Positions 3,645 to 52,205 of a stretch of DNA of 64,000 nucleotides are shown piece by piece (the first letter of the stretch is position 1; the number at the start of each line of letters is the position of its first letter). The stretch lies in the IMG/VR virus record IMGVR_UViG_3300026522_000021; one strand, written 5' to 3'. The position numbers were made by a program, and so were the translations under genes. The notes under the pieces are model-generated. The model made no database searches. It saw only the letters and a list, made by a program, of their open reading frames with translations, and was not told where the DNA came from. Origin of the DNA: a virus. Taxonomy: Duplodnaviria > Caudoviricetes.

Positions 3645-4205
3645 TCATCGAACAGCATTCTCAAAGCTTTTTCTACAACATCCTTTTCAGCCTGATACAT
3701 AAGCATCGGGCAGTCTATATCGCGAATAACATTCAAAACCATTTCAGCCCAATGAGCATCTTTGTCAGTTACTTCAAATCTGCTTCGATATGGTTTCAAT
3801 TCTCTGATTCTATCTTGTGTTGTCAATGCACCTGTTTCTGCTGTAATATCAAGAACTTCTTTGATGCTTACTGGATAATCTTGTTCAATGCCAACCCATC
3901 CCATAATCTTAAATAGTATATATCCTTTCACCACTTTCTATAGCAGATAACAATTTATTAAATGATATTTTCGCTTCTTCTTCACTATCATACTTGCCAA
4001 AACATATCGGTTTCCCATCATATTTATATCCACGTATAAACCAATTAGCCTCGTTTGATATAGGATTACACAGCTTATCTGATAATTGAATTTTATCAAA
4101 ACTACCAAGTGGATGAATTTCATTTTTATCTTTTCTAATAATAATCATAATTGTTTGCCTCCTGCAATTTCGTTTAATTTTTCTACATTTATTCTTGATG
4201 GCATA

Positions 4206-4850
4206 TCAACTTTTTTTTTCAATAATATAATTCTTAATTATTTCAATATCGTCGTTTGTTAAATTAAACCATTCGCAATCACCATTTCTGCGTCTTTTAT
4301 TTTTAAACATATTATGTAATTCTTTTTCAACTATAACATTATCATATACATATTCAAATACATGATATAATGGTTCATCAGGGAGATGAGTATATTCACC
4401 AATTCTTTTTGCTCTTTCATTACATCTTCCTATTTTATAAACACCCATATTCTCCATTACATAGACAAACCCTTGTCTCAAACACTTTGGATTCTCTATT
4501 AATTCATATGTATAATAAAAACACTTATTACCATCACGGTTTTTATGTTGAATCAAATATCCAGATTGTTTTAACTCGCTCCAAGCACTTTCAAATGCTT
4601 TCGTGCCTTCGTTACATTTTGACTTTAAAAAAGATTTATATAAAATAAAACCATCTAAAGTGATGTAACTTTGTATTAAACAATATAAACCTTTTGCTTT
4701 TAAAGAAATATCTTTATCTCTCAATAAATAATTGGAGACAATAGAAAAATTTCCTTTTTTGGTATTTAAAAATGCACCATTCTTATTATTCATATAATAT
4801 TCGCTTTCTATATGTATAAATGCGCCGCGCCGAAACACGGCGCAATCCAT
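4206..4850 (-). CDS. HTH plus T5orf172/GIY-YIG-like domain protein
   Basis: N-terminal SLKAKGLY HTH-like region; C-terminal GFVYVM..YKIGR..EKELH..EWF; AT-rich. Confidence 0.7.
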   Translation of the reverse strand: MDCAVFRRGAFIHIESEYYMNNKNGAFLNTKKGNFSIVSNYLLRDKDISLKAKGLYCLIQSYITLDGFILYKSFLKSKCNEGTKAFESAWSELKQSGYLIQHKNRDGNKCFYYTYELIENPKCLRQGFVYVMENMGVYKIGRCNERAKRIGEYTHLPDEPLYHVFEYVYDNVIVEKELHNMFKNKRRRNGDCEWFNLTNDDIEIIKNYIIEKKS

Positions 4851-5806: not shown

Positions 5807-6096
5807 CTAAAAAAATATTATTATAGAATATATATAAATCGGAAATCATTTGATTTTACACTTGCGTAACCGAATTATATTTTATATAAACGGTTTTCTT
5901 GCTTCTATCATAAATTTATTTGGGACTACACCACATGCCTTCATCCACTTTTCTACTTCTTCGCAGACCATTAAATGTTTTTCATATTCGGCTATGTTAC
6001 TGTCTTTTGACATAATAACTTTGTTATGATGCTCGCCGTATGATTCTAATAGCTCATTCATATCTTCATCTGAAATCTTCCATCCATAATTATATT

Positions 6097-6897
6097 TCAT
6101 TTAATTACCTCGCTATGGTTTTTGATCTTTGAACAAATTTTCTGCAACGCTTCTTTGTTTGACATATAAAATGGATCTTCTCCAAGCATCGCAACGATTG
6201 ACTGACCAAATCTCATCATTGGATATTGGCTATGATAATCCATTAACGCCTGAAGTATATCATCATAATCATCAGCTTCTTTTGTATCACGAGTGTACTT
6301 TGCTTTCGGATCGTAATGATCTACGATGTATTGCAACGTTCTCGGTGCATAATCAATGTACGGATACATGCATCCAACATTATAAATCTCACAAGGAAAT
6401 CCCTGACGATTTAACATAGCGGTTAATCGTCTTTCCATCTCGCTCTCGGCTGAATTGTGCGAATGACCGTGAAGCATTATGGCGTTTCTGTAATGATGGT
6501 TGTAAAACGGCATATAATAATGCGATAAAATTACTCTTTTATTAGCGCCATTTACTTCATCATTGACTTCTTTATACGGTACAACTTCTTCAAATAGCTT
6601 TTTAAAACGGTCATTTACGAACTTATCGTGATTACCAAGAATAAGATGTTTATTGCCATTAAGATTGTTTAATAATTCTTTGTAATAATCTAAATTCTGA
6701 TTATTTACCTTCCAACAAATGTCTCCAAGCACATAGATATGATCCGCATTAGTTACAGCTGCGTTCCATTTTCTTGTTATAGCCTCGTGCATTTCATCTA
6801 AATTTTTGAAACCACGATTATCAAAATCTTTTCCTGCTTTTGTTACATTGATATGCCCTAAGTGCAAATCTGAAATATATAATTTACGTTCTGCCAT
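6097..6897 (-). CDS. Calcineurin-like metallophosphoesterase
   Basis: SDLHLGH, LGD, GNHD, HGHSH motifs. Confidence 0.9.
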   Translation of the reverse strand: MAERKLYISDLHLGHINVTKAGKDFDNRGFKNLDEMHEAITRKWNAAVTNADHIYVLGDICWKVNNQNLDYYKELLNNLNGNKHLILGNHDKFVNDRFKKLFEEVVPYKEVNDEVNGANKRVILSHYYMPFYNHHYRNAIMLHGHSHNSAESEMERRLTAMLNRQGFPCEIYNVGCMYPYIDYAPRTLQYIVDHYDPKAKYTRDTKEADDYDDILQALMDYHSQYPMMRFGQSIVAMLGEDPFYMSNKEALQKICSKIKNHSEVIK

Positions 6898-10640: not shown

Positions 10641-10660
10641 GAGTTAATTTATAGTGGCAG

Positions 10661-10741
10661 TGCGGATGAAGGGATTCGAACCCTTACGCCATTTGGCATT
10701 AGTTCCTAAGACTAACGTGGCTGCCGTTACACCACATCCGC
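10661..10741 (-). tRNA. tRNA-Leu(TAG)
   Basis: GCGGATG acceptor stem, CT-TAG-GA loop, long variable arm, GGTTCGAATCC. Confidence 0.9.
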
Positions 10742-10748
10742 AATTTAC

Positions 10749-10839
10749 AAGGCGCATTTGTTGTTTGGTGTCCTTGTCGGACAAATACGATAACCCTAAT
10801 CATCAGCTTGTAAACATTTGAAATTGCTGTATGCGCCTT
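10749..10839 (-). ncRNA. ACAGCAA-motif RNA 1 (terminal-stem type)
   Basis: AAGGCGCAT/ATGCGCCTT stem, ACAGCAA after the 5' strand, internal hairpins. Confidence 0.7.
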
Positions 10840-10884
10840 TCGATATGAGAAAATATTTAAGAATATGTAGAAATAATCTACACA

Positions 10885-10958
10885 TGGAACATACAGGACT
10901 CGAACCTGTAACTTATCGGTTATGAGCCGATTGCTCTGACCAATTGAACTAATGTTCC
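10885..10958 (-). tRNA. tRNA-CAT (probably Ile2, otherwise Met)
   Basis: GGAACAT stem, ATCGG-CTCATAA-CCGAT arm, GGTTCGAGTCC. Confidence 0.88.
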
Positions 10959-10964
10959 AAACAT

Positions 10965-11161
10965 AATCAATATCAATTCGCCTCGTCAATAATTACTCAA
11001 CCGCCGAAACGCTTTTAGTTGGTTTGCGTTGCCATCTTCGTTACTCTGCCATTACTCTTTCAAGTTCATATCCACAGCAGATATTCTTAATTTTCATGGT
11101 TTTCGCTACTTAATCCTTAACATCCTCGCCTCATTACCGGCGATTTGAATTGATATTGATT
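10965..11161. ncRNA. Putative structured RNA closed by a 15-bp perfect stem
   Basis: AATCAATATCAATTC (10965-10979) pairs with GAATTGATATTGATT (11147-11161); ORF-free, inside the tRNA operon. Confidence 0.5.
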
Positions 11162-11368
11162 TGTCCGCATTGACTCGTCCTGTTCTCAGCCCCAACAACC
11201 AGACCACCATCACGCACTATGGGCAGAACCAATCAACCGATATTCTATTACGTTGTTGCGTTCGTAATATATTAGTAAATTCTGGTGCGTCAGTCATCAT
11301 AAGTGAATAAGTATATATCATTTCAACTTATTCCATCCTTGTTTACGGATGCTTTACTTATTTCTGAT

Positions 11369-11449
11369 TGCGATGATTTGGATTCGAACCAATACCTCGC
11401 CCACGTTTCCCATGTCTACAGGCGTATGCTACCTTTTACAACACACCGC
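11369..11449 (-). ncRNA. tRNA-like RNA with expanded anticodon arm
   Basis: GCGGTG/CATCGC acceptor, GGTTCGAATCC T-arm; CGCC/GGCG stem encloses TGTAGA plus a CATG-GGAAA-CGTG hairpin. Confidence 0.6.
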
Positions 11450-11583
11450 TTTTCAGTTATTCCATACCTTTACATCTGTACTATGGTTAGCTACACCATC
11501 GCCACCCTCACACTTTTGTTAATCTTTCCCTTAATGCTATTCTCTGGATAACTTTTCTGAATTATTCGCGATATAATTCATAG

Positions 11584-11665
11584 TGCTTGCGGAGGGAGTC
11601 GAACCCTCAATCCGTCTGGCGTGTGAGCTTAAATCACATGTGTATTCCATTTCCACCACGCAAGC
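11584..11665 (-). tRNA. tRNA-Leu(TAA)
   Basis: GCTTGCG stem, TT-TAA-GC loop, long variable arm, GGTTCGACTCC. Confidence 0.88.
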
Positions 11666-11705
11666 ATGTGTGTAAAGACCCTTACAATAAACTTTACACG
11701 TATTT

Positions 11706-11807
11706 TGTTTAGCGACCTCAAGAAAGTAAACCAAATGACAACATACACACTGAAACACAAAGCACAAATCTATTTATAGGAGGAGATACCACTATGGCGC
11801 TAAAACA
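11706..11807 (-). ncRNA. Putative antisense sRNA complementary to the shared early-gene leader and RBS
   Basis: Terminal stem TGTTTTAGCG/CGCTAAACA; loop contains CAT..CTCCTCCT..TTTGTGCTTTGTGT..GTGTATGTTGT..GTTTACTT. Confidence 0.55.
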
Positions 11808-11824
11808 GGTTTTAGAAATCTTAA

Positions 11825-11952
11825 CAGCGAGGACAGGACTCGAACCTGTAACCTACGGCTTCCTGAATGCGTAACGTTAAAATTGCTGCGCGTATCTAAT
11901 ACAAGATACGTTGTTTGTTTTTACGTTGCTCTGCCAGTTGAGCTACCTCGCT
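11825..11952 (-). ncRNA. ACAGCAA-motif RNA 2 (tRNA-scaffold chimera)
   Basis: AGCGAGG acceptor, canonical D- and T-arms; insert hairpin CGTATCT/AGATACG followed by CGCAGCAA. Confidence 0.8.
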
Positions 11953-12022
11953 GATGTTGTGGATGTGGCAATGGAAAACCAAGGCAAGAACCCACATCCA
12001 CTAATATGAGTGTTCTGAAAAC

Positions 12023-12088
12023 TAAGCGCATATAAAACTTTATCAATGACTGTCAGAAAAAGATTTTATAGTTTGCTGTTCGCGCTTA
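12023..12088 (-). ncRNA. ACAGCAA-motif RNA 3 (terminal-stem type)
   Basis: TAAGCGC-GA-ACAGCAA...GCGCTTA; directly downstream of the DUF2828 gene. Confidence 0.7.
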
Positions 12089-12098
12089 AATCTATGAT

Positions 12099-13598
12099 TT
12101 ACAGTAATCCTTCTACGGCTTCTCTTACTTTCGCGTAGCGTTCTCCATTCAGCGTTTCAAGAAGAACTTTGTAAGGATCAACCTGATTGCTCATGAACAT
12201 CTTCAGGATTTGAACCGAAAATCCACTGCAAAGAATAAGCCCCATATCATTCTGTTGCATCGGGATTGTTCCATTCAAGCGACCGCTTAAATTCCAGAAA
12301 CAAATCTTCGGAAGTTTATATCCTGCGTCCTCGAATTCCTGTGCGATTTCATCAAACAGGCTCTTGTTGAGATTGTGTGAACGACCGTCAAACTGCATGT
12401 CGGAACAAATCACGATCATCTTCGGCATATCTTCCGCAGAAGTATGATTTCTCTTTGCTGTTTTCAGGATCAGCATCATAGTCTTATAGATGTTCGTGTT
12501 TGAACAATCGGATTCGCGCAAGGAAAGATCAACTTTATCTGCAAGCGAATCGCAATTTGACAGATCGACAATCTTCGGATTGGATGAGAAGGTAATAAAC
12601 TTATCTTTCCAATCGCCTGTATTGTGTTCTGACATGTAAATTGCAAGTGCGGTTGCTACATCTAAAGGTGTACCACTTCCTGCAAAACTTCCCCATGTCA
12701 TAGAACCAGAACCATCACGAACAATCAGTGTGTTCTCTACAGACAGATCAGGAAGTGCCTTCCACAGCGCTTCGAGCGTTGCATCTTTTCTGCATCTATT
12801 CTGGCGATACTTCAGGCAGATCTCATGCGGATTAAGCGTGCTTGCGTTAATCTTTGCAGTGCCTTTTTCAAGCGATGCAAGATATTCGCGTCTACGATCC
12901 TCATCATTCCGTAAGAATGCGCTATTGTAGATCAGATTAGCTTTAGAAGGCACAGTTTCATAATTGATCTTATCCCATTTCTTAGCACTCATTTTGACCT
13001 CTACAACATCAAGATACTTTCTAAGTTTGGATAAAGTCTTTCTGTACTTCTTCTCTGTCCATCCAAGTTCACGGCAGATTGTTTTAGCTCTGTCAACTGT
13101 TATCTTGGATGATGCATTGACGCTCGGCATCCACTTCGCACACAGAGAAATCGACTTGCCTTCCTTCATGTTGGCTTTATCTTCTTTCAGCTGCGCCTTG
13201 ATTAAAGCGATTGCCTTTCCTCTCGTTCTTTCATCGTCAAGCATAACCATGACGCTATCCCAACGATTATAGAATGGGATAAGATCAATGATAGCCTTTG
13301 CGATCTTCGGCTGTTTTTCTGCAAGATAGCTCAGTCCAGCTCTGAAAGCTTTTCTCTCACCAAGTCCTTCACGGACATCGCCAAGATAGAAAAGATATTC
13401 AAGCGCTGTCAGCTTATCCTCAAAGAAAACTTTCATGAAATCTTCTTTGATCGCTTCAGGAAATCTGTTACGCATAGCAGATACTCCAAAGTTGAAATCA
13501 AGAAGTTTCTTTCCTGCTGTTGCATAGGCGATCGCGCCGTTTGTGGTTACTGATTTGCGAGTGTTCAATTCATTTTGCATTTCATCGAAGAAACTCAT
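12099..13598 (-). CDS. DUF2828-family TROVE/Ro60-like protein with C-terminal vWA domain
   Basis: TTNGAIAY, DVREGLGER, SLCAKWMPS; MIDAS RDGSGSM; SDMQFD; FWNL. Confidence 0.85.
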   Translation of the reverse strand: MSFFDEMQNELNTRKSVTTNGAIAYATAGKKLLDFNFGVSAMRNRFPEAIKEDFMKVFFEDKLTALEYLFYLGDVREGLGERKAFRAGLSYLAEKQPKIAKAIIDLIPFYNRWDSVMVMLDDERTRGKAIALIKAQLKEDKANMKEGKSISLCAKWMPSVNASSKITVDRAKTICRELGWTEKKYRKTLSKLRKYLDVVEVKMSAKKWDKINYETVPSKANLIYNSAFLRNDEDRRREYLASLEKGTAKINASTLNPHEICLKYRQNRCRKDATLEALWKALPDLSVENTLIVRDGSGSMTWGSFAGSGTPLDVATALAIYMSEHNTGDWKDKFITFSSNPKIVDLSNCDSLADKVDLSLRESDCSNTNIYKTMMLILKTAKRNHTSAEDMPKMIVICSDMQFDGRSHNLNKSLFDEIAQEFEDAGYKLPKICFWNLSGRLNGTIPMQQNDMGLILCSGFSVQILKMFMSNQVDPYKVLLETLNGERYAKVREAVEGLL

Positions 13599-13639
13599 AA
13601 TTGCTTTACCTCTCTTTTCTTAATTTGTGGTTGCAATTC

Positions 13640-13704
13640 AAGGCACTGGTTGTGGTTGTAAGATTAAAAGTCTTATCCATAATAGTGGTTGCTGTATGTG
13701 CCTT
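13640..13704 (-). ncRNA. ACAGCAA-motif RNA 4 displaying a Lys(UUU) anticodon stem-loop
   Basis: AAGGCAC-AT-ACAGCAA...TAAGA-CTTTTAA-TCTTA...GTGCCTT. Confidence 0.8.
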
Positions 13705-13712
13705 AAATGTAT

Positions 13713-13830
13713 AGCGCACGATTGGATTCGAACCAATGACAAATTCTTCTGTGTATTAAGTTGCTGATTGCGATTATCGCTAACCGCGTTTAACAAATTA
13801 AAACTGCACTACCAACTGTGCTACGTGCGC
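13713..13830 (-). ncRNA. ACAGCAA-motif RNA 5 (tRNA-scaffold chimera, no anticodon loop)
   Basis: GCGCACG acceptor, D- and T-arms; insert GCGGTTA-GCGA-TAATCGC-AA-TCAGCAA. Confidence 0.8.
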
Positions 13831-13846
13831 CATCCCTTTCGGGAAA

Positions 13847-14002
13847 CAGCAGTGACAGGAATCGAACCTGTGCTTGCAGCTTGACCAAGTAAACTTGCTG
13901 TGTGTTCCTTTAATTCCCCGACTCTAACTCGTCTATGCGGTTACTCTCGGTGGTAACAAGAAACATTTATATGCTGCCGTGTTCCCACTTCACTACACTG
14001 CC
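13847..14002 (-). ncRNA. ACAGCAA-motif RNA 6 (tRNA-scaffold chimera, large insert)
   Basis: GGCAGTG/CACTGCT acceptor; GCAGC/GCTGC stem encloses a TGTTTCTT/AAGGAACA helix followed by CACAGCAA; GGTTCGATTCC. Confidence 0.8.
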
Positions 14003-14005
14003 GCG

Positions 14006-14130
14006 CCCATCGTGAAGGATTCGAACCTTCCCCTCAAGTTTTGCAGACTTGTAATTGATATATAACTTTGCTGTAGGTGTTTACACTAAACACACAATCA
14101 AAAGATATGCTACCTCTACACCAACGATGG
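14006..14130 (-). ncRNA. ACAGCAA-motif RNA 7 (tRNA chimera retaining a Cys(GCA) anticodon arm)
   Basis: CCATCGT acceptor; insert GTGTTTA-GTG-TAAACAC-CT-ACAGCAA; then CAAGT-CTGCAAA-ACTTG; T-arm. Confidence 0.8.
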
Positions 14131-14148
14131 GATATTCAATTTTTAAAC

Positions 14149-14212
14149 AAGACGCTATGATGGTAATATAAGTTAACAGCTTATTCCTTCATATAATTGC
14201 TGTATGCGTCTT
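14149..14212 (-). ncRNA. ACAGCAA-motif RNA 8 displaying an Asn(GUU) anticodon stem-loop
   Basis: AAGACGC-AT-ACAGCAA...ATAAG-CTGTTAA-CTTAT...GCGTCTT. Confidence 0.8.
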
Positions 14213-14225
14213 TCAGTTTTAACAC

Positions 14226-14315
14226 AAGGCACTTTATTTTGATGGACTTGAACCATCTCGCAAAGACTTTGAATGTTTTTACTTTAACCGATGTTAAGTT
14301 TGCTGTATGTGCCTT
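14226..14315 (-). ncRNA. ACAGCAA-motif RNA 9 (motif stem in place of acceptor stem; D-, anticodon- and T-like arms)
   Basis: AAGGCAC-AT-ACAGCAA, ACTT-AACATCGGTTA-AAGT, AAAAC-ATTCAAA-GTCTT, GATGG-TTCAAGT-CCATC, GTGCCTT. Confidence 0.75.
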
Positions 14316-14336
14316 TCTTGTTATCTTGCAATACCT

Positions 14337-14365
14337 ATTATAGCATATCGTTCTCGGCTTTGCAA
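14337..14365 (-). promoter_or_regulatory. sigmaA promoter driving the ACAGCAA-RNA/DUF2828 operon
   Basis: TTGCAA-17-TATAAT with extended TG; about 20 nt upstream of RNA 9. Confidence 0.8.
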
Positions 14366-14478
14366 GTATTATTTTGAATTATTTTTAATGTAGTTTTGAT
14401 TTCTCGCGATCACTACAAGCGCACAGTTTCTTACTTTTTATGATGTTAGTTTAGAACTGCAAAAGCAACCATTCATCG

Positions 14479-14551
14479 TGCGCCAGATGGGACTCGAACC
14501 CATGACTTTTCGATTAAAAGTCGAATACTCTACCATCTGAGTTACTGGCGC
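14479..14551 (-). tRNA. tRNA-Lys(TTT)
   Basis: GCGCCAG stem, TTCGA-CTTTTAA-TCGAA, GGTTCGAGTCC. Confidence 0.93.
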
Positions 14552-14555
14552 GTAA

Positions 14556-14629
14556 CAGGCGCAGTAGGAATTGAACCCACGCTCACGCAGCTTTGGAGGC
14601 TGGTAGACTTCCAATTATCTTATACGCCT
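14556..14629 (-). tRNA. tRNA-Trp(CCA)
   Basis: AGGCGTA stem, CAGC-CTCCAAA-GCTG, GGTTCAATTCC. Confidence 0.85.
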
Positions 14630-14633
14630 TTAG

Positions 14634-14953
14634 TGGAGTAGAGGGGAATCGAACCCCTGTCCAAAACTACTCTATAAATATCCTTTACGCCGTTTGGGTT
14701 TGTACTGATCTGAATTTACAGATTCAACTCCGTCTGTCCACCACCTGTTTCACCGTCTTGTATAACAGGAACTTCAATCAGACATTACTTCGATCTTCAG
14801 CATTGACCGTCTAAAAGAATTACTGAAGATAGATGTGGCTCACGCCGCCATCCGATTTTCTGTATAATCAGCGTTTATATTTAGGTTTGATGATTAAGTC
14901 ATCACTCTGGCGAGATATTTACTTTGTAACCCTGTCGAAACCTTTACTACCCC
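14634..14953 (-). ncRNA. ssrA: tmRNA; predicted tag (A)ADYTENRMAA* at 14872-14840
   Basis: 5' GGGGTAGTAAAGGTTTCGAC, 3' GACAGGGGTTCGATTCCCCTCTACTCCA with G3.U70; ATAAAC-GCT resume context; tag ends in AA. Confidence 0.92.
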
Positions 14954-14961
14954 ATATATAA

Positions 14962-15032
14962 CAGCGGTTGAGGGTAATGCTCCCCCTTGTTCTGGGTCAA
15001 AGCCAGACGTATTACTTTTATACTAAACCGCT
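14962..15032 (-). tRNA. tRNA-Gln(TTG) with non-canonical T-loop
   Basis: AGCGGTT stem, TCTGG-CTTTGAC-CCAGA, T-loop AGCATTA. Confidence 0.8.
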
Positions 15033-15040
15033 AAAACTTC

Positions 15041-27706: not shown

Positions 27707-28857
27707 TTACATGTCTACTTCTTCAGGCTCGTTCATGAAGTCAGAAGAAACATCCTCATGTTTTTCAATATCGGATTTTTCTGCTTCTTCAACGCCATCA
27801 TCTTCATGTTCATCGGATGCCTCGATATCCACATCATCGAAGAACCGATCCCATACCTTTTCGATCTCATCATGTCTGCGCTTGATATTCGCGTTCTTTG
27901 CAGAACCACCCTTGCAAGCATCGGAGTAAGCATCGGACACGATCACGCCATTTCCGAAAAGTTCTACCATGAAATCGCCCATCAGCTTATCAGAAATCTC
28001 ATCATCAATAGCCTGTTTGATCCACGGAACAAGCGAGATCATATGCGTTTCAGAAACCATTTTCTTTCTAACAGCCTTCGCAACCTTCGCATTGTCGTAC
28101 TCCTCAAGCACATTATAGATTGCGTAAATCTTATCCAGAACAGAAACGACCTCATCGCGCTCGGCATCGCTCATCTTCGTTTCCTGCATCACTTCGTTGA
28201 AAGTTCTGCTTTCAAAAGATACATCATCAATGTCCTCGTTCAGCATCATCCATACCTTCATGATGATCGGGAGCTGCTTTCTGGTTGCAAGCGCCTTTTC
28301 GGTCATGGTGTTCTGGAAAAGCTCATGCTTTCCAATATCAGAAACGGTGATGATGTCAACACAGTTAGCAATGTTGCGCTCTTTAGTGGAAAGGGGCTTT
28401 CCATTGTTCAGCTTCGCGAACAGCATCCGAACCTGTTCAGGAGTGATATCCTCGTAATAGTAGATCGTCAGGTGATAATCCTTGATTGCATCCTGAATCT
28501 CTTCGGGAAGGTCTTTAAAGTATTTCCCTTCAAGCCATTCCGTCTGCTCATTGCCCTCTGCATCAGTATATGTAATCTCAGGAACGCCAATCAGGTAATA
28601 CTCGTTCTCGATGAAGCCACGAATAGCATTGATGCGCTGCTTTCCATCAAGGAAATCATATGTTCTTCCGTCAACCTTCTTTGCGTAAAATGGCGGTACA
28701 GGATATCCTTCAATCAGGGAATGAATCAGGTTACTCTTCCTTGTCTGTTCCCATACATAGGATCTCTGGATGATATTGTCGAAACTGAATGTTCCGTTTC
28801 CTGCCATTTTCGCGATCTGCTTACAACTCCATGTAATGTTTGCTTTGTTAAGTGCCA
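27707..28857 (-). CDS. DUF262 (GmrSD/ParB-like) domain protein
   Basis: IQRSYVW, LIHSLIEGYPVP, LDGKQR, FAKLNNGKPL; start placed at MALNKA after GGAGG. Confidence 0.85.
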
Positions 28858-28974
28858 TTTCTTTATCCTCCTTTGTTTGATTTGCTTTGTGTTCTTTGTT
28901 TACTACCTCTCTATGTGAACATGTTACCACATAAAGAGGTAGATGTCAACTATTATTTTGAATTATTTTTTAAT

Positions 28975-47787: not shown

Positions 47788-48120
47788 TTATGCTGTCGCG
47801 ATTGCGTCCACCTGTGCCATTGTGAAGAATGCCGCGACTTTCATAAAACATTTTCCAGTTTCGATTGTTTCGCCCGACTCCTCATCTGTATGAGTTTTTC
47901 CGCGATACTTCCAGACCTGAATTTTGATCTCGGATTTTTCCCCTCGTCGAACCTGATAACCAAGCTCTTTCCATTTTGCGTATGTGTGGATTGCTTCGGG
48001 AATTTCCAGCTGCTTTTTTCCATCCTGAGTCTCGACTTCGATAAATTTTCCTGTCCCTTTGAGCTTGCCTTCTTCCATAAGCTTTACGGACTCCATAAGG
48101 ATAATCATTGCGTTTGTCAT
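47788..48120 (-). CDS. ArdC-like ssDNA-binding N-terminal domain protein
   Basis: TYAKWKELGYQVRRGEKS...FFTMAQV; start after GGAGG. Confidence 0.7.
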   Translation of the reverse strand: MTNAMIILMESVKLMEEGKLKGTGKFIEVETQDGKKQLEIPEAIHTYAKWKELGYQVRRGEKSEIKIQVWKYRGKTHTDEESGETIETGKCFMKVAAFFTMAQVDAIATA

Positions 48121-49441
48121 TGAAATTTTCCTCCTTTGTTTGTGTGCTTTGTGTATTTCATTTACTGATTGCATGATAACTCCGATTTTCCGCGCTGTCA
48201 AGTATTATTTTGATTTATTTTTAAATTTTCCGAATGAAATTTTCCATATAATCATGATCTGAATGAAATTTTCCAATATACAATAAAAACATCATTTTAT
48301 TAGAGATTTTCCAATATAAACATACTATATTAGTATGTTTATTATGATCGGCGCTTGCAAATCTTCCAGACTGGCAAACCAAAAGGATAATTTTCCAATA
48401 TCGCGATTTTTTGCGGATGCTCGGCGAGTGATCCGTTTTAATTTTCCAAAAATGCAAAAATCTGTTTTTTCCAGCTGCGAGCAATTGCAATTTTCCGTAT
48501 TTTTCCAAAACTAAATCTTCCAGATGATCTCGGCGCGATAATTGGCAATTTTCCAAAACCAAAACAGGAAAACGGCATTTTCCAAAACAACGCGCAGTAA
48601 TGCAGAAAAGCGATGATTTCAAAAACCAAAAGGGAAAACGGCAGAACAGGCAGAAAAGAATGGTTTTAGAAAACAATGCGCTCGCACTGGCGCAGAAAAT
48701 CATGGTATTTGAAAACTATTCATGATCGGCAGCACTGGCGCGATAAATGCGGATTTTGGAAAACAAAAAGGATCTCGGCGCGGCGATAAAGTGAAGTATT
48801 GGAAAACTATAATACTCGCGGCAGATACGGCAGAAAATGCGCGTTTTGGAAAACGACAGGAACGCGGATGATTGTTTTTGAAAATCGGGAAAAGCTGCGA
48901 TGATCGGCGCGAAAAAGGATTGTTTTTGAAAACGCGGAAAAATTGCGGAGCGCTCGGCGAGTGATTGCAAAAAAAATCGACGTTTTGCAAAACTATGGAA
49001 TATCGCGGAACTGGACAGGATCGGCAGCAAAAAAGCGCGTTTTTGAAAAACCAAAACAGGCATCAGAGCAGAAAAACGGAGTTTTGAAAAACATCGGAAA
49101 AGCGCGGACGGTCAGGAGTTTAGTGGAGTAAAGCGGTAAAGTGCGACAGGCAAAAAGAAAACAGGGCTTGCGCCCTGTTATTTCTCATGTTTTAGATGAT
49201 ATTCTATTGTGCGGATCATGTTTTTGGCTTGATATTCTGATATTCCTACAATCTCCGCCGTTTTTTTGATTGATAAACCCTGTTCAAACCTTGCGCGATA
49301 TACTGCGGAATAAACAGGATGAAATTTAGTATAATAGTCTGGTAACATAGTCTCCCTCCATAGTTTTTGAAAATTTGATTTTTTGTTTTCGGAATACAGG
49401 AGGAGGCTCTCGCCTCTCTCCTTGTATTGTGTTATCTTGTA

Positions 49442-50309
49442 TTATTCATTGATCGCCTTTTCGAATGCTGCAACGATCTTTTTCGCGGCTACCTGTGCTT
49501 TATGCTTTCTGTACTCGGTGATGTTGTTGTATCTGCTGGTATCGAATGTGCTGTCGTTGAAATGTGCTACAAAGTTGTTCATGACGATCTCGGTGACTTT
49601 CGTTGCGAACTTTGCCATTTTCATGTACTGTTTGCTGTTCTGGAATTTTGCCATTCTGAATTCAAGCGTCATGCTGTGCTGTGTGTTTATGAAATTGGTA
49701 TGGGATGTTGCATCGGTGTATTCGTTGATGCTTCTCGCCCAGCAATCACCCTCGCTGTTGTACTCGTCAATGCCGCGCCCGAAAAGCTTTCTCGTTGCTT
49801 CATCGTTTGCTTTCATCGCCTCGGACAGTGGAAGAAACAGGCTGTGATAGAAACGGCGGATGTATCCGATTGTCTCGCTGTTCAGATCTCTATGCCCTAC
49901 ATGGAAGTGACTTCCTGCTGTCGATCCGATCTCCATGTCACCGTCTGCAATCAGACGATCCATCACTTTCCAAAGATGGGAAAAGCTCTTGAGGCTGTTT
50001 TCGATTGCGCTCTTGTATTCAACGTCAACCGTGCAATCTGCTGTAGGAAGCATCCCATACTCGTAAAGCTCGCTCCGCGCTTTAGCGTTGCTGTATGTTG
50101 TCTCGTTCTCCATGCCGTAAGTGAACGGATGAACGGTATCAGCTCCGCGCTGCTCGTTGTTCTTTGTTGTGTATCCGTGCATCTCGCTGTTGCAACGCTC
50201 GCAGATATAAGCTCCGCGCTGTCCGCGATTGTTCTTCTCGACTCTGTGCATGATGGAAATGTGACCGACTGCTCCGCATCTCGTGCATGTAACTGTTGTT
50301 CTTGCCATG
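49442..50309 (-). CDS. Putative amidoligase (COOH-NH2 ligase type 2)
   Basis: TYGMENE, DCT..VEYKS, TAGSHFHVG, TLEFRM; start at MARTTVTC after AAAGGAG. Confidence 0.75.
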
Positions 50310-50947
50310 ATTTTGTTCTCCTTTTCGTTCGATGTGCTTGTGTGTTTGTTTTGTGTATGTGGTTTATTAGGTTCTGTCAATACAATAGCACCGTTAATAG
50401 ATATTGTCAAGCATTATTTTGCATTTTTTAAAAATTATTTTTTTCTGTCATTCTGGACAGGGAAAACAGAAAAAGACTTTTTTCTTTTCCCTTATATAGA
50501 AGAAACACAAACAAAAAACATGCTCCGATCTCCGCTCGGCGCGGCATTTTTTAGGGTAAAAAAGAGCCAAAAACCGCGTAAAATCAAGGCTTTTCGGCGT
50601 TTTGAGTCTCCTCCTGTTTTCCGCTGATTTTTCGATTGATTTTTACGGCTTATTAAGTTTTGCAAAACATGGATTTTTTGCGGAATATCGCTTTAATAGA
50701 GTAAAGCATGAAAGCGACAGGATCAGCACGCTTTATCACATTAAAGTGCGACAGTAAAGAAGGCAGATGATAGGTTAGATAGCACTAACCAGTATGCGCG
50801 GATCATATGGTTAGATAATGCTAACTATCGGATGCAGCTGGACAGGTTAGAGCGCACTAACTCGGCAGTGAATACTTTATTGCTGTAAAGTGCGAAAGCT
50901 GCGGATCAGATGCTTTAACAGAGTAAAGTGATGAAGGAAGAAAAGCA

Positions 50948-51020
50948 TTAGCACTCTATCGCCGAGAGCGCTAAACTGGCAGACAGGATCATTTTAGCAC
51001 TCCAGAATATCGAGTGCTAA
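50948..51020. promoter_or_regulatory. Two CIRCE (HrcA) operators
   Basis: TTAGCACTC-N9-GAGCGCTAA (50948-50974) and perfect TTAGCACTC-N9-GAGTGCTAA (50994-51020). Confidence 0.92.
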
Positions 51021-51021
51021 T

Positions 51022-51186
51022 TGTGGAAAAATCGCGATAATTGAGTATGAATATTTATACAATTCTATGAATTGTGGATAACTTTTAAATAATGTGGATA
51101 ACTTGACTGTAAATTGTGGATAACTCGGTATTTTTAGCTGATTTTGGAGGAAATTGTGGATAAAATGTGGATAACTTTGTGGAAAA
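51022..51186. promoter_or_regulatory. DnaA-box cluster
   Basis: Perfect TGTGGATAA at 51073, 51093, 51115, 51155 and 51166; one-mismatch copies at 51022 and 51178; all co-oriented. Confidence 0.9.
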
Positions 51187-52205
51187 AATTTTTTGTCGAA
51201 AATGCACAAAAACGCAAAAAATCCCAATTTTTAAAAACATCGAAAAAAGTCGATAAAAACGGCATTTTATTGTTTTTCAAAATTATATTTTTTTGTGCAA
51301 TCCTACCAAAAATTTTAACACTTTACTCCGCTGAAGTAAGTCCGTTTTTTGTCCTTTTTCAGACTTGCCAGAAAAGACGGGGGGACAGAATAAACCTACT
51401 ATATTAGTATGTTTTCTATTGTCTGACAATTCGATCATTCTATACGGAATAGGGGTACAATTTAAGTTATTGAGTGACACTTCACTCCGCTAAAGCCAGT
51501 ATCGTGCCCCATCCCACTCTTACAAAAAAATCCCAATTCCAATAAAAATTTTTTCCACACTCCCCCAATTTTTCATTTTGACTAAATCTGCCTATTAACG
51601 AAAACTTCACCGAAAAATTATTAAAGCACTAAAATAGTCAAAATCAATTCATTATCGAAGTCGCCCGAAAATCACAATCAAATTTTCTAATCATACTAAA
51701 TCTGCCACTTTACACCAATGCCATCTTCGGCAACCGAATAAATTCACCGAAGCGAAAATCGACCTTAAATATTCGAGCAGAAAAGTGTGATTTTTAAAAA
51801 TTAAACATTTTAGAGAAAACGTACTGATATAGCCGATTTCATATATCTGGCGAAAAATCAGGATTAACGATCAGGAATTCAAACACATAAATTTGAGATT
51901 ACCCGATTAAAATATTTTGCCAATAAAAACGATCTGAAAATCAGTTTATAAATAATGCAAAATAAGCCTTGACAATGTTTATAAAACTGTGCTACTATGT
52001 CAGTGTGGCAAAAGATAGTTTCATTCTCCTGTGGTTTAATCCCACATTAGATGCAACTATTCCAACCGAACGGCACAACTATATATGTATGAACGTATAG
52101 GAATATAATCATTCTATACTTGTATAGAGTGAATACATATATAGTTGTTACTATACAATAATATATTCTTGTATAGATTATTAATATGAGTATGCATTTT
52201 GTCCG

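Follow-up and report, generated by a model that had tools for sequence, protein, structure and literature searches.

Why would a phage maintain, free of genes, the recognition sites of several bacterial regulators stacked side by side? The question is raised by positions 50690-51186 of IMG/VR record IMGVR_UViG_3300026522_000021 (Duplodnaviria; Caudoviricetes), a stretch of 64 kb that is referred to at its full length as the window. Within this non-coding block, nine dyad sites follow one another as A A B B B A A C C, where C is CIRCE, the operator of HrcA, and a cluster of DnaA boxes comes after them (Table 1). A preliminary description made from the letters of the DNA had reported these motifs; all were found where it placed them, and its identifications of CIRCE and of the DnaA boxes are correct. 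The sites are genuine and under selection. Of the three dyad types, two correspond in sequence to host-repressor operators, and the direct repeats match the boxes of host DnaA. The favored reading, to which a probability of about 0.45 can be given, is that the block is a cis-acting docking array that would couple the phage origin or an early switch to host DnaA, HrcA and metal status.

Small open reading frames (ORFs) overlap 50283-51480, and all were rejected as genes because each is interrupted by stop codons in L219, one of the close relatives that were recovered with the YonO-type RNA polymerase as an anchor and compared over the same intergenic region. The region is therefore non-coding, and the earlier claim that the block is gene-free holds. 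The accompanying claim, that no chaperone gene is adjacent, agrees with the absence of any such gene among the window ORFs scanned against Pfam. An Rfam search of the block matched no RNA family. The array is modular, with units of ∼36-46 bp that each carry one dyad-symmetric protein site; the linkers after the dyads are 11-25 bp long, and GACAGGATC or GCGGATCA is present in several of them.

The two CIRCE copies are the only matches at up to three mismatches in the 64 kb, as against 0.01 expected. In an alignment with L219, 3 of the 36 CIRCE arm positions of the window are changed, as against 10 of the 18 positions in the N9 spacers (Fisher p = 3e-4); selection on the arms is indicated, as they diverge far less than the spacers. 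Perfect CIRCE elements number two to six per genome in the genomes that carry relatives of the window phage, and host HrcA is the expected reader, as predicted from the sites. No protein of the HrcA, DtxR or DnaA families was found among the window ORFs scanned over the 64 kb; two near-complete CIRCE-bearing phages likewise gave no HrcA gene, and a search for the HrcA family gave no match in G001-G005. The copies do not lie between a sigma-A promoter and a chaperone gene: no upstream promoter was found, and no gene starts within 600 bp. CIRCE 1 was also considered as an intrinsic terminator and rejected, as the T-tail is absent in L219. The presence of CIRCE, together with strong Shine-Dalgarno sequences, points to a Firmicute as the probable host. 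The closest relative belongs to a metagenome-assembled genome (MAG) binned as Bacteroidales, and the HrcA family search was without a match in a Bacteroides control genome.

Dyad B was assigned through host genomes. GGTTAG-N6-CTAAC occurs in three perfect copies with a 36-bp period and nowhere else in the window, and RGTTAG-N6-CTAACY is matched in 98 of 151 Clostridia genomes. Counts range from none to a dozen per host genome, often 2-12 as against 0-3 for the reversed control, and the sites are frequently paired; Ruminococcus sp. YE282 (G006) has 12, with 0 for the reversed control. Genomic B sites precede feoB (33 bp upstream), a DtxR-family repressor gene, and genes for rubrerythrin and a ZIP transporter, and one lies before a P-type ATPase divergent from a DUF2325-DUF3793 operon. 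Because B is enriched in Clostridia and located before metal-homeostasis genes, it is predicted to be the operator of a clostridial DtxR-family metal repressor. The classical corynebacterial DtxR/IdeR box is TTAGGTTAG-S-CTAACCTAA, with half-sites 1 bp apart. B has the same half-site words, GGTTAG and CTAACC, but places them 6 bp apart and so departs from the classical geometry; the assignment rests on genomic context, not on identity to the corynebacterial box.

Dyad A behaves differently. Its core, CTTTA-N6-TAAAG, is perfect at 50691, 50731, 50875 and 50913 and has one mismatch at 49118, 51321 and 51480; a form with a conserved TG extension, CTTTA-N6-TAAAGYG, can be recognized. As a host operator it was rejected, since neither RCTTTA-N6-TAAAGY in 151 genomes nor CTTTA-N6-TAAAGTG in 101 genomes was enriched over the reversed control, a test that is blind to regulons of one to three sites at this background. 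The preliminary description had called both palindromes unknown and proposed that candidate host genomes be scanned for them; the scan gave GGTTAG-N6-CTAACY a predicted identity and CTTTA-N6-TAAAG no enrichment. A-like half-sites also occur in conserved non-coding DNA of the window-phage family, and the reader of dyad A may be phage-encoded. Seven of the 12 forward copies of the GACAGG core in the window fall within 2.1 kb here, and the word GACAGGA is co-oriented and recurs in L122. A second repeat field to the left of the block (Table 1) is also present in L219, at 3960-4320, and similar units of the GTTTCAAAAATTTGAAAC type precede the DnaA boxes of Lactococcus phage AM1.

The right end of the block is an origin-like DnaA-box cluster. 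Five perfect DnaA boxes lie within 102 bp, with no other perfect copy in 64 kb, and all boxes are co-oriented on the minus strand. The intervals from 51073 to 51178 are 20, 22, 40, 11 and 12 bp, all near multiples of the helical turn, and the outer near-box at 51022 stands 51 bp ahead of the first perfect box. The features looked for in an origin, at least three consensus boxes within 100 bp of each other and co-orientation on one face of the helix, are thus both present. By composition only, windows of 74-80% A+T occur at 51050 and at 51200-51300. Cumulative GC skew bottoms out near 50 kb, and coding shifts from the minus to the plus strand between 50.3 and 52.2 kb; the block lies inside this 1.9-kb divergent intergenic region, with minus-strand genes up to 50308 and plus-strand genes from 52206. 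The slot, orientation and phasing of the boxes are shared with L219 (seven boxes), L122 (four) and L208 (three); DnaA boxes thus fill the direct-repeat slot in four lineages, the window included, with spacings between perfect boxes of 11-12, 20-22, and 32 or 40 bp, again close to multiples of the helical turn.

Close relatives keep the architecture and reshuffle or replace the modules. L219, which has 84-92% nucleotide identity in the flanks, carries B A B C C and then seven perfect DnaA boxes. In L122 an array of T-poor direct repeats (CACCAACGAA, CGACAGGAA) precedes its four boxes. In L114, eight B-type dyads come first, and the exact slot of the DnaA boxes is then taken by eight tandem 11-bp iterons (AAAATGGTTTT, 655-745). 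The winged helix-turn-helix (wHTH) protein encoded downstream is 79% identical between L114 and the window, with a nearly identical helix-turn-helix, and 29% identical between L122 and the window; because the former phage has iterons and the latter DnaA boxes, the boxes are not sites for this phage protein. To judge from these alignments, the direct-repeat slot appears to behave as an exchangeable initiator-binding array that does not co-vary with the wHTH protein. L199 and L219, which come from one MAG, have a mosaic polymerase identity, 98% at the N-terminus and 86% over the rest. In L201, a prophage of Ruminococcus sp. YE282, positions 5905-6150 hold an array of TTGTTAA-N4-TTAACAA dyads that presumably match the clostridial Rex consensus; as a demonstrated host site this "Rex box" was rejected, with perfect copies in that genome found inside the prophage only.

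Similar arrays, for which the preliminary description had suggested looking in related phages, are present in the close relatives and in unrelated lineages as well. More than 113 IMG/VR contigs carry a perfect CIRCE. The ORFs flanking these elements (n = 112) include 18 GroES, 18 Hsp20 and 5 HtpG (together ∼40%), and 32 loci have no ORF start within 200 bp. Four gene-free CIRCE copies alternate with three B sites in L053, whereas its sister L292 has six A sites with a 24-bp period, a degenerate CIRCE, B and then CIRCE. L061 (identical to G002) and L093 combine two to three CIRCE, four to six B, two A with a third half-site, and four to five TTGTGAA-N4-TTCACAA dyads; the last of these presumably fits both the Rex and the Crp/Fnr consensus and is left without assignment. 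L075 (identical to G003) has two CIRCE and three ATGAAACGTTTCAT dyads, and L280, L289 and L295 have the order B-CIRCE-B. No protein is shared between the fetched CIRCE loci and the window at E 1e-8, and G002 and G003 were ruled out as members of the window-phage family, as both lack a YonO-type polymerase. In these two large contigs the CIRCE arrays lie at the GC-skew minimum and strand switch, and in G002 the B (20), A (5) and TGTGA-type (13) dyads are also spread over ∼19 kb, in the spacers that separate small early cassettes. Arrays made from the A/B/CIRCE set are thus far known from at least two phage lineages that have no detected protein in common with the window phage, and the block stands at the divergence point in three independent lineages.

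Other viral contigs carry parts of this set. Arrays of three to seven GTTAG-N6-CTAAC dyads with a 24-28-bp period, accompanied by a half-CIRCE word and no full CIRCE, occur in contigs of 50-55% GC (L264, L266, L268-L271, L276-L278, L281, L282, L284, L287, L291, L293 and L296). In IMG/VR contigs of 5-7 kb (L019, L032, L044, L054, L057 and L071), a perfect CIRCE is flanked by a 415-aa ORF on one side and a divergent 146-aa ORF on the other. In the survey, seven ORFs next to CIRCE match REP_ORF2-G2P, a rolling-circle Rep family, and the 415-aa ORFs are probably among them; CIRCE may stand beside a replication gene in small single-stranded DNA phages too.

Table 1. Sites of the block and neighboring features in the window.
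Feature	Position	Strand	Details
Second repeat field	48800-49150		GACAGGA and GCGGA words between GTTTT-N2-AAAAC dyads; last element an A-like site (49118-49150) plus third half-site
Amidoligase-like gene (P0001)	49442-50308	-	Zn ribbon plus amidoligase-like; first left-arm gene, kept in relatives
Leftward sigma-A-like promoter	50382-50410	-	TTGACA-17-TATTGT with TG; for the amidoligase-like gene; 280 bp from first dyad; conserved
Dyad A1	50690-50707		GCTTTA-N6-TAAAGC
Dyad A2	50730-50747		GCTTTA-N6-TAAAGT, then third half-site GCGACAGTAAAG
Dyad B1	50773-50790		GGTTAG-N6-CTAACC; operator type of DtxR-family metal repressors (predicted)
Dyad B2	50809-50826		GGTTAG-N6-CTAACT
Dyad B3	50845-50862		GGTTAG-N6-CTAACT
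Dyad A3	50874-50891		ACTTTA-N6-TAAAGT
Dyad A4	50912-50929		GCTTTA-N6-TAAAGT
CIRCE 1	50948-50974		One mismatch in right arm (GAGCGCTAA); kept in L219
CIRCE 2	50994-51020		Perfect TTAGCACTC-N9-GAGTGCTAA; minus-strand overlap with weak promoter-like TTAGCA-18-TGcTAAAAT
DnaA-box cluster	51022-51186	-	Five perfect TTATCCACA (51073, 51093, 51115, 51155, 51166); near-boxes 51022, 51178
AT-rich tract	51187-51320		74-78% A+T; adjoins DnaA boxes; possible unwinding region
Conserved non-coding DNA	51290-51720		A-like half-sites 51320, 51479; repeat ACTAAATCTGCC; common to L219, L114, L122, L201
Right-arm sigma-A-like promoter	51969-51998	+	TTGACA-18-TACTAT with TG
wHTH DnaD-like replication protein (P0003)	52206-52961	+	
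YonO-type single-subunit RNA polymerase	53136-55919	+	Anchor for finding relatives

In the cis-acting array favored here, the phased boxes would be where host DnaA oligomerizes, in the role of initiator or accessory factor. HrcA, the metal repressor and the reader of dyad A would adjoin DnaA and could gate origin firing, early divergent transcription, or both. Phage replication or induction would then track three host conditions: proteostasis, since HrcA needs free GroEL, metal status, and the state of replication. Once replicated, the block in its many copies would inevitably also titrate these low-abundance repressors, a likely side effect that may itself have been selected. This reading is preferred because of the position of the block, the phasing of the boxes, the interchangeability of boxes and iterons, the replication gene downstream, the dispersed copies in G002 and the precedents for host factors acting in cis on phage DNA. 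Those precedents include DtxR at the tox operator of corynephage beta and LexA in GIL01 and CTXphi; further cases are the Spo0A and Spo0J sites on phi29 and DnaA at P1 oriR. Full-text searching on CIRCE and HrcA gave no paper that describes CIRCE in phage genomes or HrcA in such a phage role. The preliminary description had put a DNA sponge first and an origin or switch coupled to heat shock and the cell cycle second; the latter fits the anatomy better, given the skew minimum, the strand switch, the phased boxes, the iteron slot and the wHTH gene.

Several observations weigh against a cis function. In a promoter scan, no sigma-A-type promoter was clearly overlapped by any dyad, and the closest good ones lie 280 bp off on the left side of the block and ∼950 bp off on the right. 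The dyads are spaced 29-46 bp from center to center, which are not multiples of the helical turn, and same-face cooperativity is therefore not indicated. Dyad order and copy number differ between close relatives (AABBBAACC in the window as against BABCC in L219), and L114 and L122 are without CIRCE; such drift and loss would be unexpected for a precise operator geometry. With the criterion of at least four trios taken from PMC7561715 (clostridial oriC), no DnaA-trio run was found on either strand of 50980-51360, so DnaA may be accessory, as at plasmid origins, rather than the unwinding factor. The skew minimum alone does not prove an origin, as phage GC skew also tracks the direction of transcription. 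The box cluster could be either a firing origin or a datA-like sink that only binds DnaA. The missing promoter overlap, the unphased dyads and the drifting order and copy number suit a sponge equally well or better.

Such a sponge, a replicating decoy, is possible but less probable than the cis-acting array. It would act mainly in trans, with hundreds of amplified consensus operators soaking up HrcA, the metal repressor and DnaA; groESL/dnaK and metal uptake would be derepressed, host initiation disturbed, and virion production would gain. The sites are dense, of consensus quality and without an attached gene or promoter, and unphased dyads are expected for independent binding. Host regulons are small (two to six CIRCE, and from none to a dozen B sites per genome), so that at a hundred phage copies the host sites would be outnumbered many times over, and a position at the origin would presumably give the highest dosage. 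Copy number and order change fast while the arms are conserved, both between the window and L219 and between L053 and L292, and the A/B/CIRCE set is reused in lineages without detected shared proteins. There is also an engineered precedent, in that synthetic decoy arrays retune transcription-factor regulons in E. coli (PMC7826281). Against this, each phage genome offers just two to four sites per regulator, close relatives manage without CIRCE or without DnaA boxes, and the B, A and TGTGA-type dyads in the inter-cassette spacers of G002 look more like cis regulation. Searching the literature on decoy sites and phage DnaA boxes gave no natural operator sponge on a phage, and to our knowledge no natural multi-regulator decoy on a phage has been described. 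It is possible, though less likely than not, that rapidly evolving operator and DnaA-box arrays at the origins of large Firmicute phages are self-amplifying decoys, which would deplete the host of its low-copy repressors and of DnaA, turn on chaperones and metal uptake, arrest host initiation and so achieve host takeover by DNA alone, without a phage protein. The cis and trans models are not mutually exclusive.

An ordinary operator would be another explanation of the CIRCE pair, though an improbable one. CIRCE 2 would form a leftward extended -10 (TTAGCA-18-TGcTAAAAT) of an overlooked promoter and CIRCE 1 would lie in the leader, yielding an HrcA-controlled transcript that runs through the array. 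The scan scores this site at 9 of 12 matches plus TG, the TGCTAAAAT junction is retained in L219, and the same left flank is found on several other phage CIRCE copies. In L219, however, the -35-like hexamer is weakened (TAAGCA) and the terminator-like tail after CIRCE 1 is not kept. The transcript would reach no ORF before the amidoligase-like gene, and that gene is served by a strong conserved promoter of its own; the A, B and DnaA sites would also be left unexplained. An overlooked promoter with the sites as its cis-operators was the finding that the preliminary description had set against its own proposal; this one weak extended -10 over CIRCE 2 does not make a convincing case for it.

No better placed is the idea that the dyads are iterons or operators for phage-encoded proteins, their host likeness being partly coincidental, in a phage-autonomous origin, centromere or immunity region. 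Dyad A suits it, both in its lack of enrichment in the 151 and 101 Clostridia genomes and in the A-like half-sites of the conserved non-coding DNA of the family, as do the Rex-like sites of L201, perfect inside the prophage only, and the concentration of GACAGGA at the block with its recurrence in L122. G002 and G003 also each encode one small wHTH protein with a weak match to Fe_dep_repress, of which no homologue was found in the window. An 18-base perfect CIRCE together with five to seven perfect DnaA boxes is nevertheless beyond coincidence, B clearly looks like a host metal-regulon operator, and the 64 kb yielded no HrcA, DtxR or DnaA family protein to read such sites. A DNA-entry or membrane-tether element like the T5 injection stop, at which membrane-associated DnaA and other host proteins would hold incoming DNA, is very unlikely: T5-like phages do have an untranslated palindrome and repeat region with ordered DnaA boxes (bioRxiv 10.1101/866236) and the arrays of G002 and G003 lie at 8-11% of genome length from a contig end, but genes take up at least 50 kb on the left side of the block and leave no short first-step-transfer segment nearby, the T5 model is itself hypothetical, and CIRCE and B have no role in it.

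The remainder of the window is that of a large phage, probably from a gut or rumen Firmicute, with tRNAs, a transfer-messenger RNA (tmRNA), ClpP, a beta clamp and a tyrosine recombinase. Its YonO-type polymerase shares ∼40% identity with the polymerases of Clostridium phage c-st and Enterocloster phages, and a GIY-YIG-type homing-endonuclease-like gene (55912-56808) overlaps the end of the polymerase gene. At least nine tRNAs lie across 10660-15033 and 59034-60321, and the tmRNA (tag ADYTENRMAA) is at 14631-14953; long Rfam tRNA matches at 11825-11952, 13713-13830 and 13847-14002, which were not called by ARAGORN, may be intron-containing tRNAs. The right arm encodes a ClpP protease (61818-62426), a beta-CASP/RMMBL RNase-J-like protein (60364-61806) and an SbcD-like exonuclease (62666-63871), which with the tmRNA suggest phage interference with host protein and RNA quality control. 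Pfam matches among 39 minus-strand window ORFs include a PemK/MazF-like toxin, DarA_C (anti-restriction), YqeY and one Cro/C1-type helix-turn-helix, and GmrSD-like and ArdC-N-like genes are found at 27707-28930 and 47788-48201. Two neighbors were considered as regulators and rejected. A 56-aa helix-turn-helix gene resembling sigma-70 region 4 (49178-49348) is absent from L219, where the neighborhood is otherwise kept and the array is retained, and so is not the array reader; P0001 is amidoligase-like rather than a DNA-binding regulator. Searches of Protein Data Bank sequences with P0001 and P0003 gave no match.

The single elements of the block are of kinds already known; their combination in a stacked, reshuffled array for several regulators at a putative phage origin appears to be a new variation on them. 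Phages are known to borrow single host regulators (LexA, DtxR, Spo0A and DnaA), but here several are stacked without genes, in arrays whose order changes from one sister phage to the next and whose modules recur, newly combined, in unrelated phages of gut and rumen Firmicutes. Similar arrays in unrelated phages suggest that phages have a route, not described so far, for reading or manipulating the physiology of the host. If the sites act in cis, host repressors would give abundant and mostly uncultured phages a direct readout of proteostasis and metal status; acting in trans, the arrays would be natural transcription-factor sponges. The module set also provides a sequence signature for control regions and host phyla, as CIRCE implies an HrcA-bearing host.

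Several known systems share parts of this arrangement. The CIRCE/HrcA operators of groESL and hrcA-grpE-dnaK in Firmicutes have the identical 9-N9-9 inverted repeat, which is also present in the genomes carrying relatives of the phage; in the window, by contrast, CIRCE is accompanied by neither a chaperone gene nor an immediately upstream sigma-A promoter, and the copies stand in tandem within other operators and beside DnaA boxes. With oriC, P1 oriR, the pSC101 and F origins and E. coli datA, the block shares at least five consensus 9-mers that are co-oriented and helically phased, adjacent AT-rich DNA, a skew minimum and a nearby replication-protein gene. It differs in having no dnaA or dnaN neighbors and no DnaA-trio, and in that a sister phage fills the slot with unrelated 11-bp iterons.

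The box module has a match in other phages. A megablast search of 24 kb against GenBank phages gave nothing, with lactococcal phages matching the DnaA-box module alone. In the Lactococcus 949 group (KY554768.1, ∼22.65-23.41 kb), a gene-free stretch runs from a repeat and palindrome array through AT-rich DNA to four co-oriented boxes ∼21 bp apart, a module 87% identical to window positions 51073-51126; it is without CIRCE or B sites, the record carries no annotation there, and no functional study was found. In T5-like phages, an untranslated region of 1.2-1.6 kb holds palindromes, repeats and eight ordered DnaA boxes, for which an injection stop has been proposed but not shown (bioRxiv 10.1101/866236). 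Like the block, this iss region is a long untranslated stretch of a large phage in which palindromes and repeats accompany ordered DnaA boxes, but it lies in the terminal repeat, its function is hypothetical and its order is highly conserved among T5-like phages, whereas dyad order in the window family is fluid and the block does not mark the end of a short first-transferred terminal segment. Synthetic decoy arrays are likewise tandem operators on replicating DNA able to titrate a regulator; unlike the window array, those of PMC7826281 are engineered, or are chromosomal sinks for one protein.

Functional parallels are DtxR in corynephage, LexA in GIL01 and CTXphi, and Spo0A and Spo0J in phi29, where phage operators are likewise read by a host regulator that reports iron, SOS or sporulation status. 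In each of these, one or a few sites overlap a defined promoter or origin, whereas in the window several host operators are stacked together, gene-free and rapidly reshuffled.

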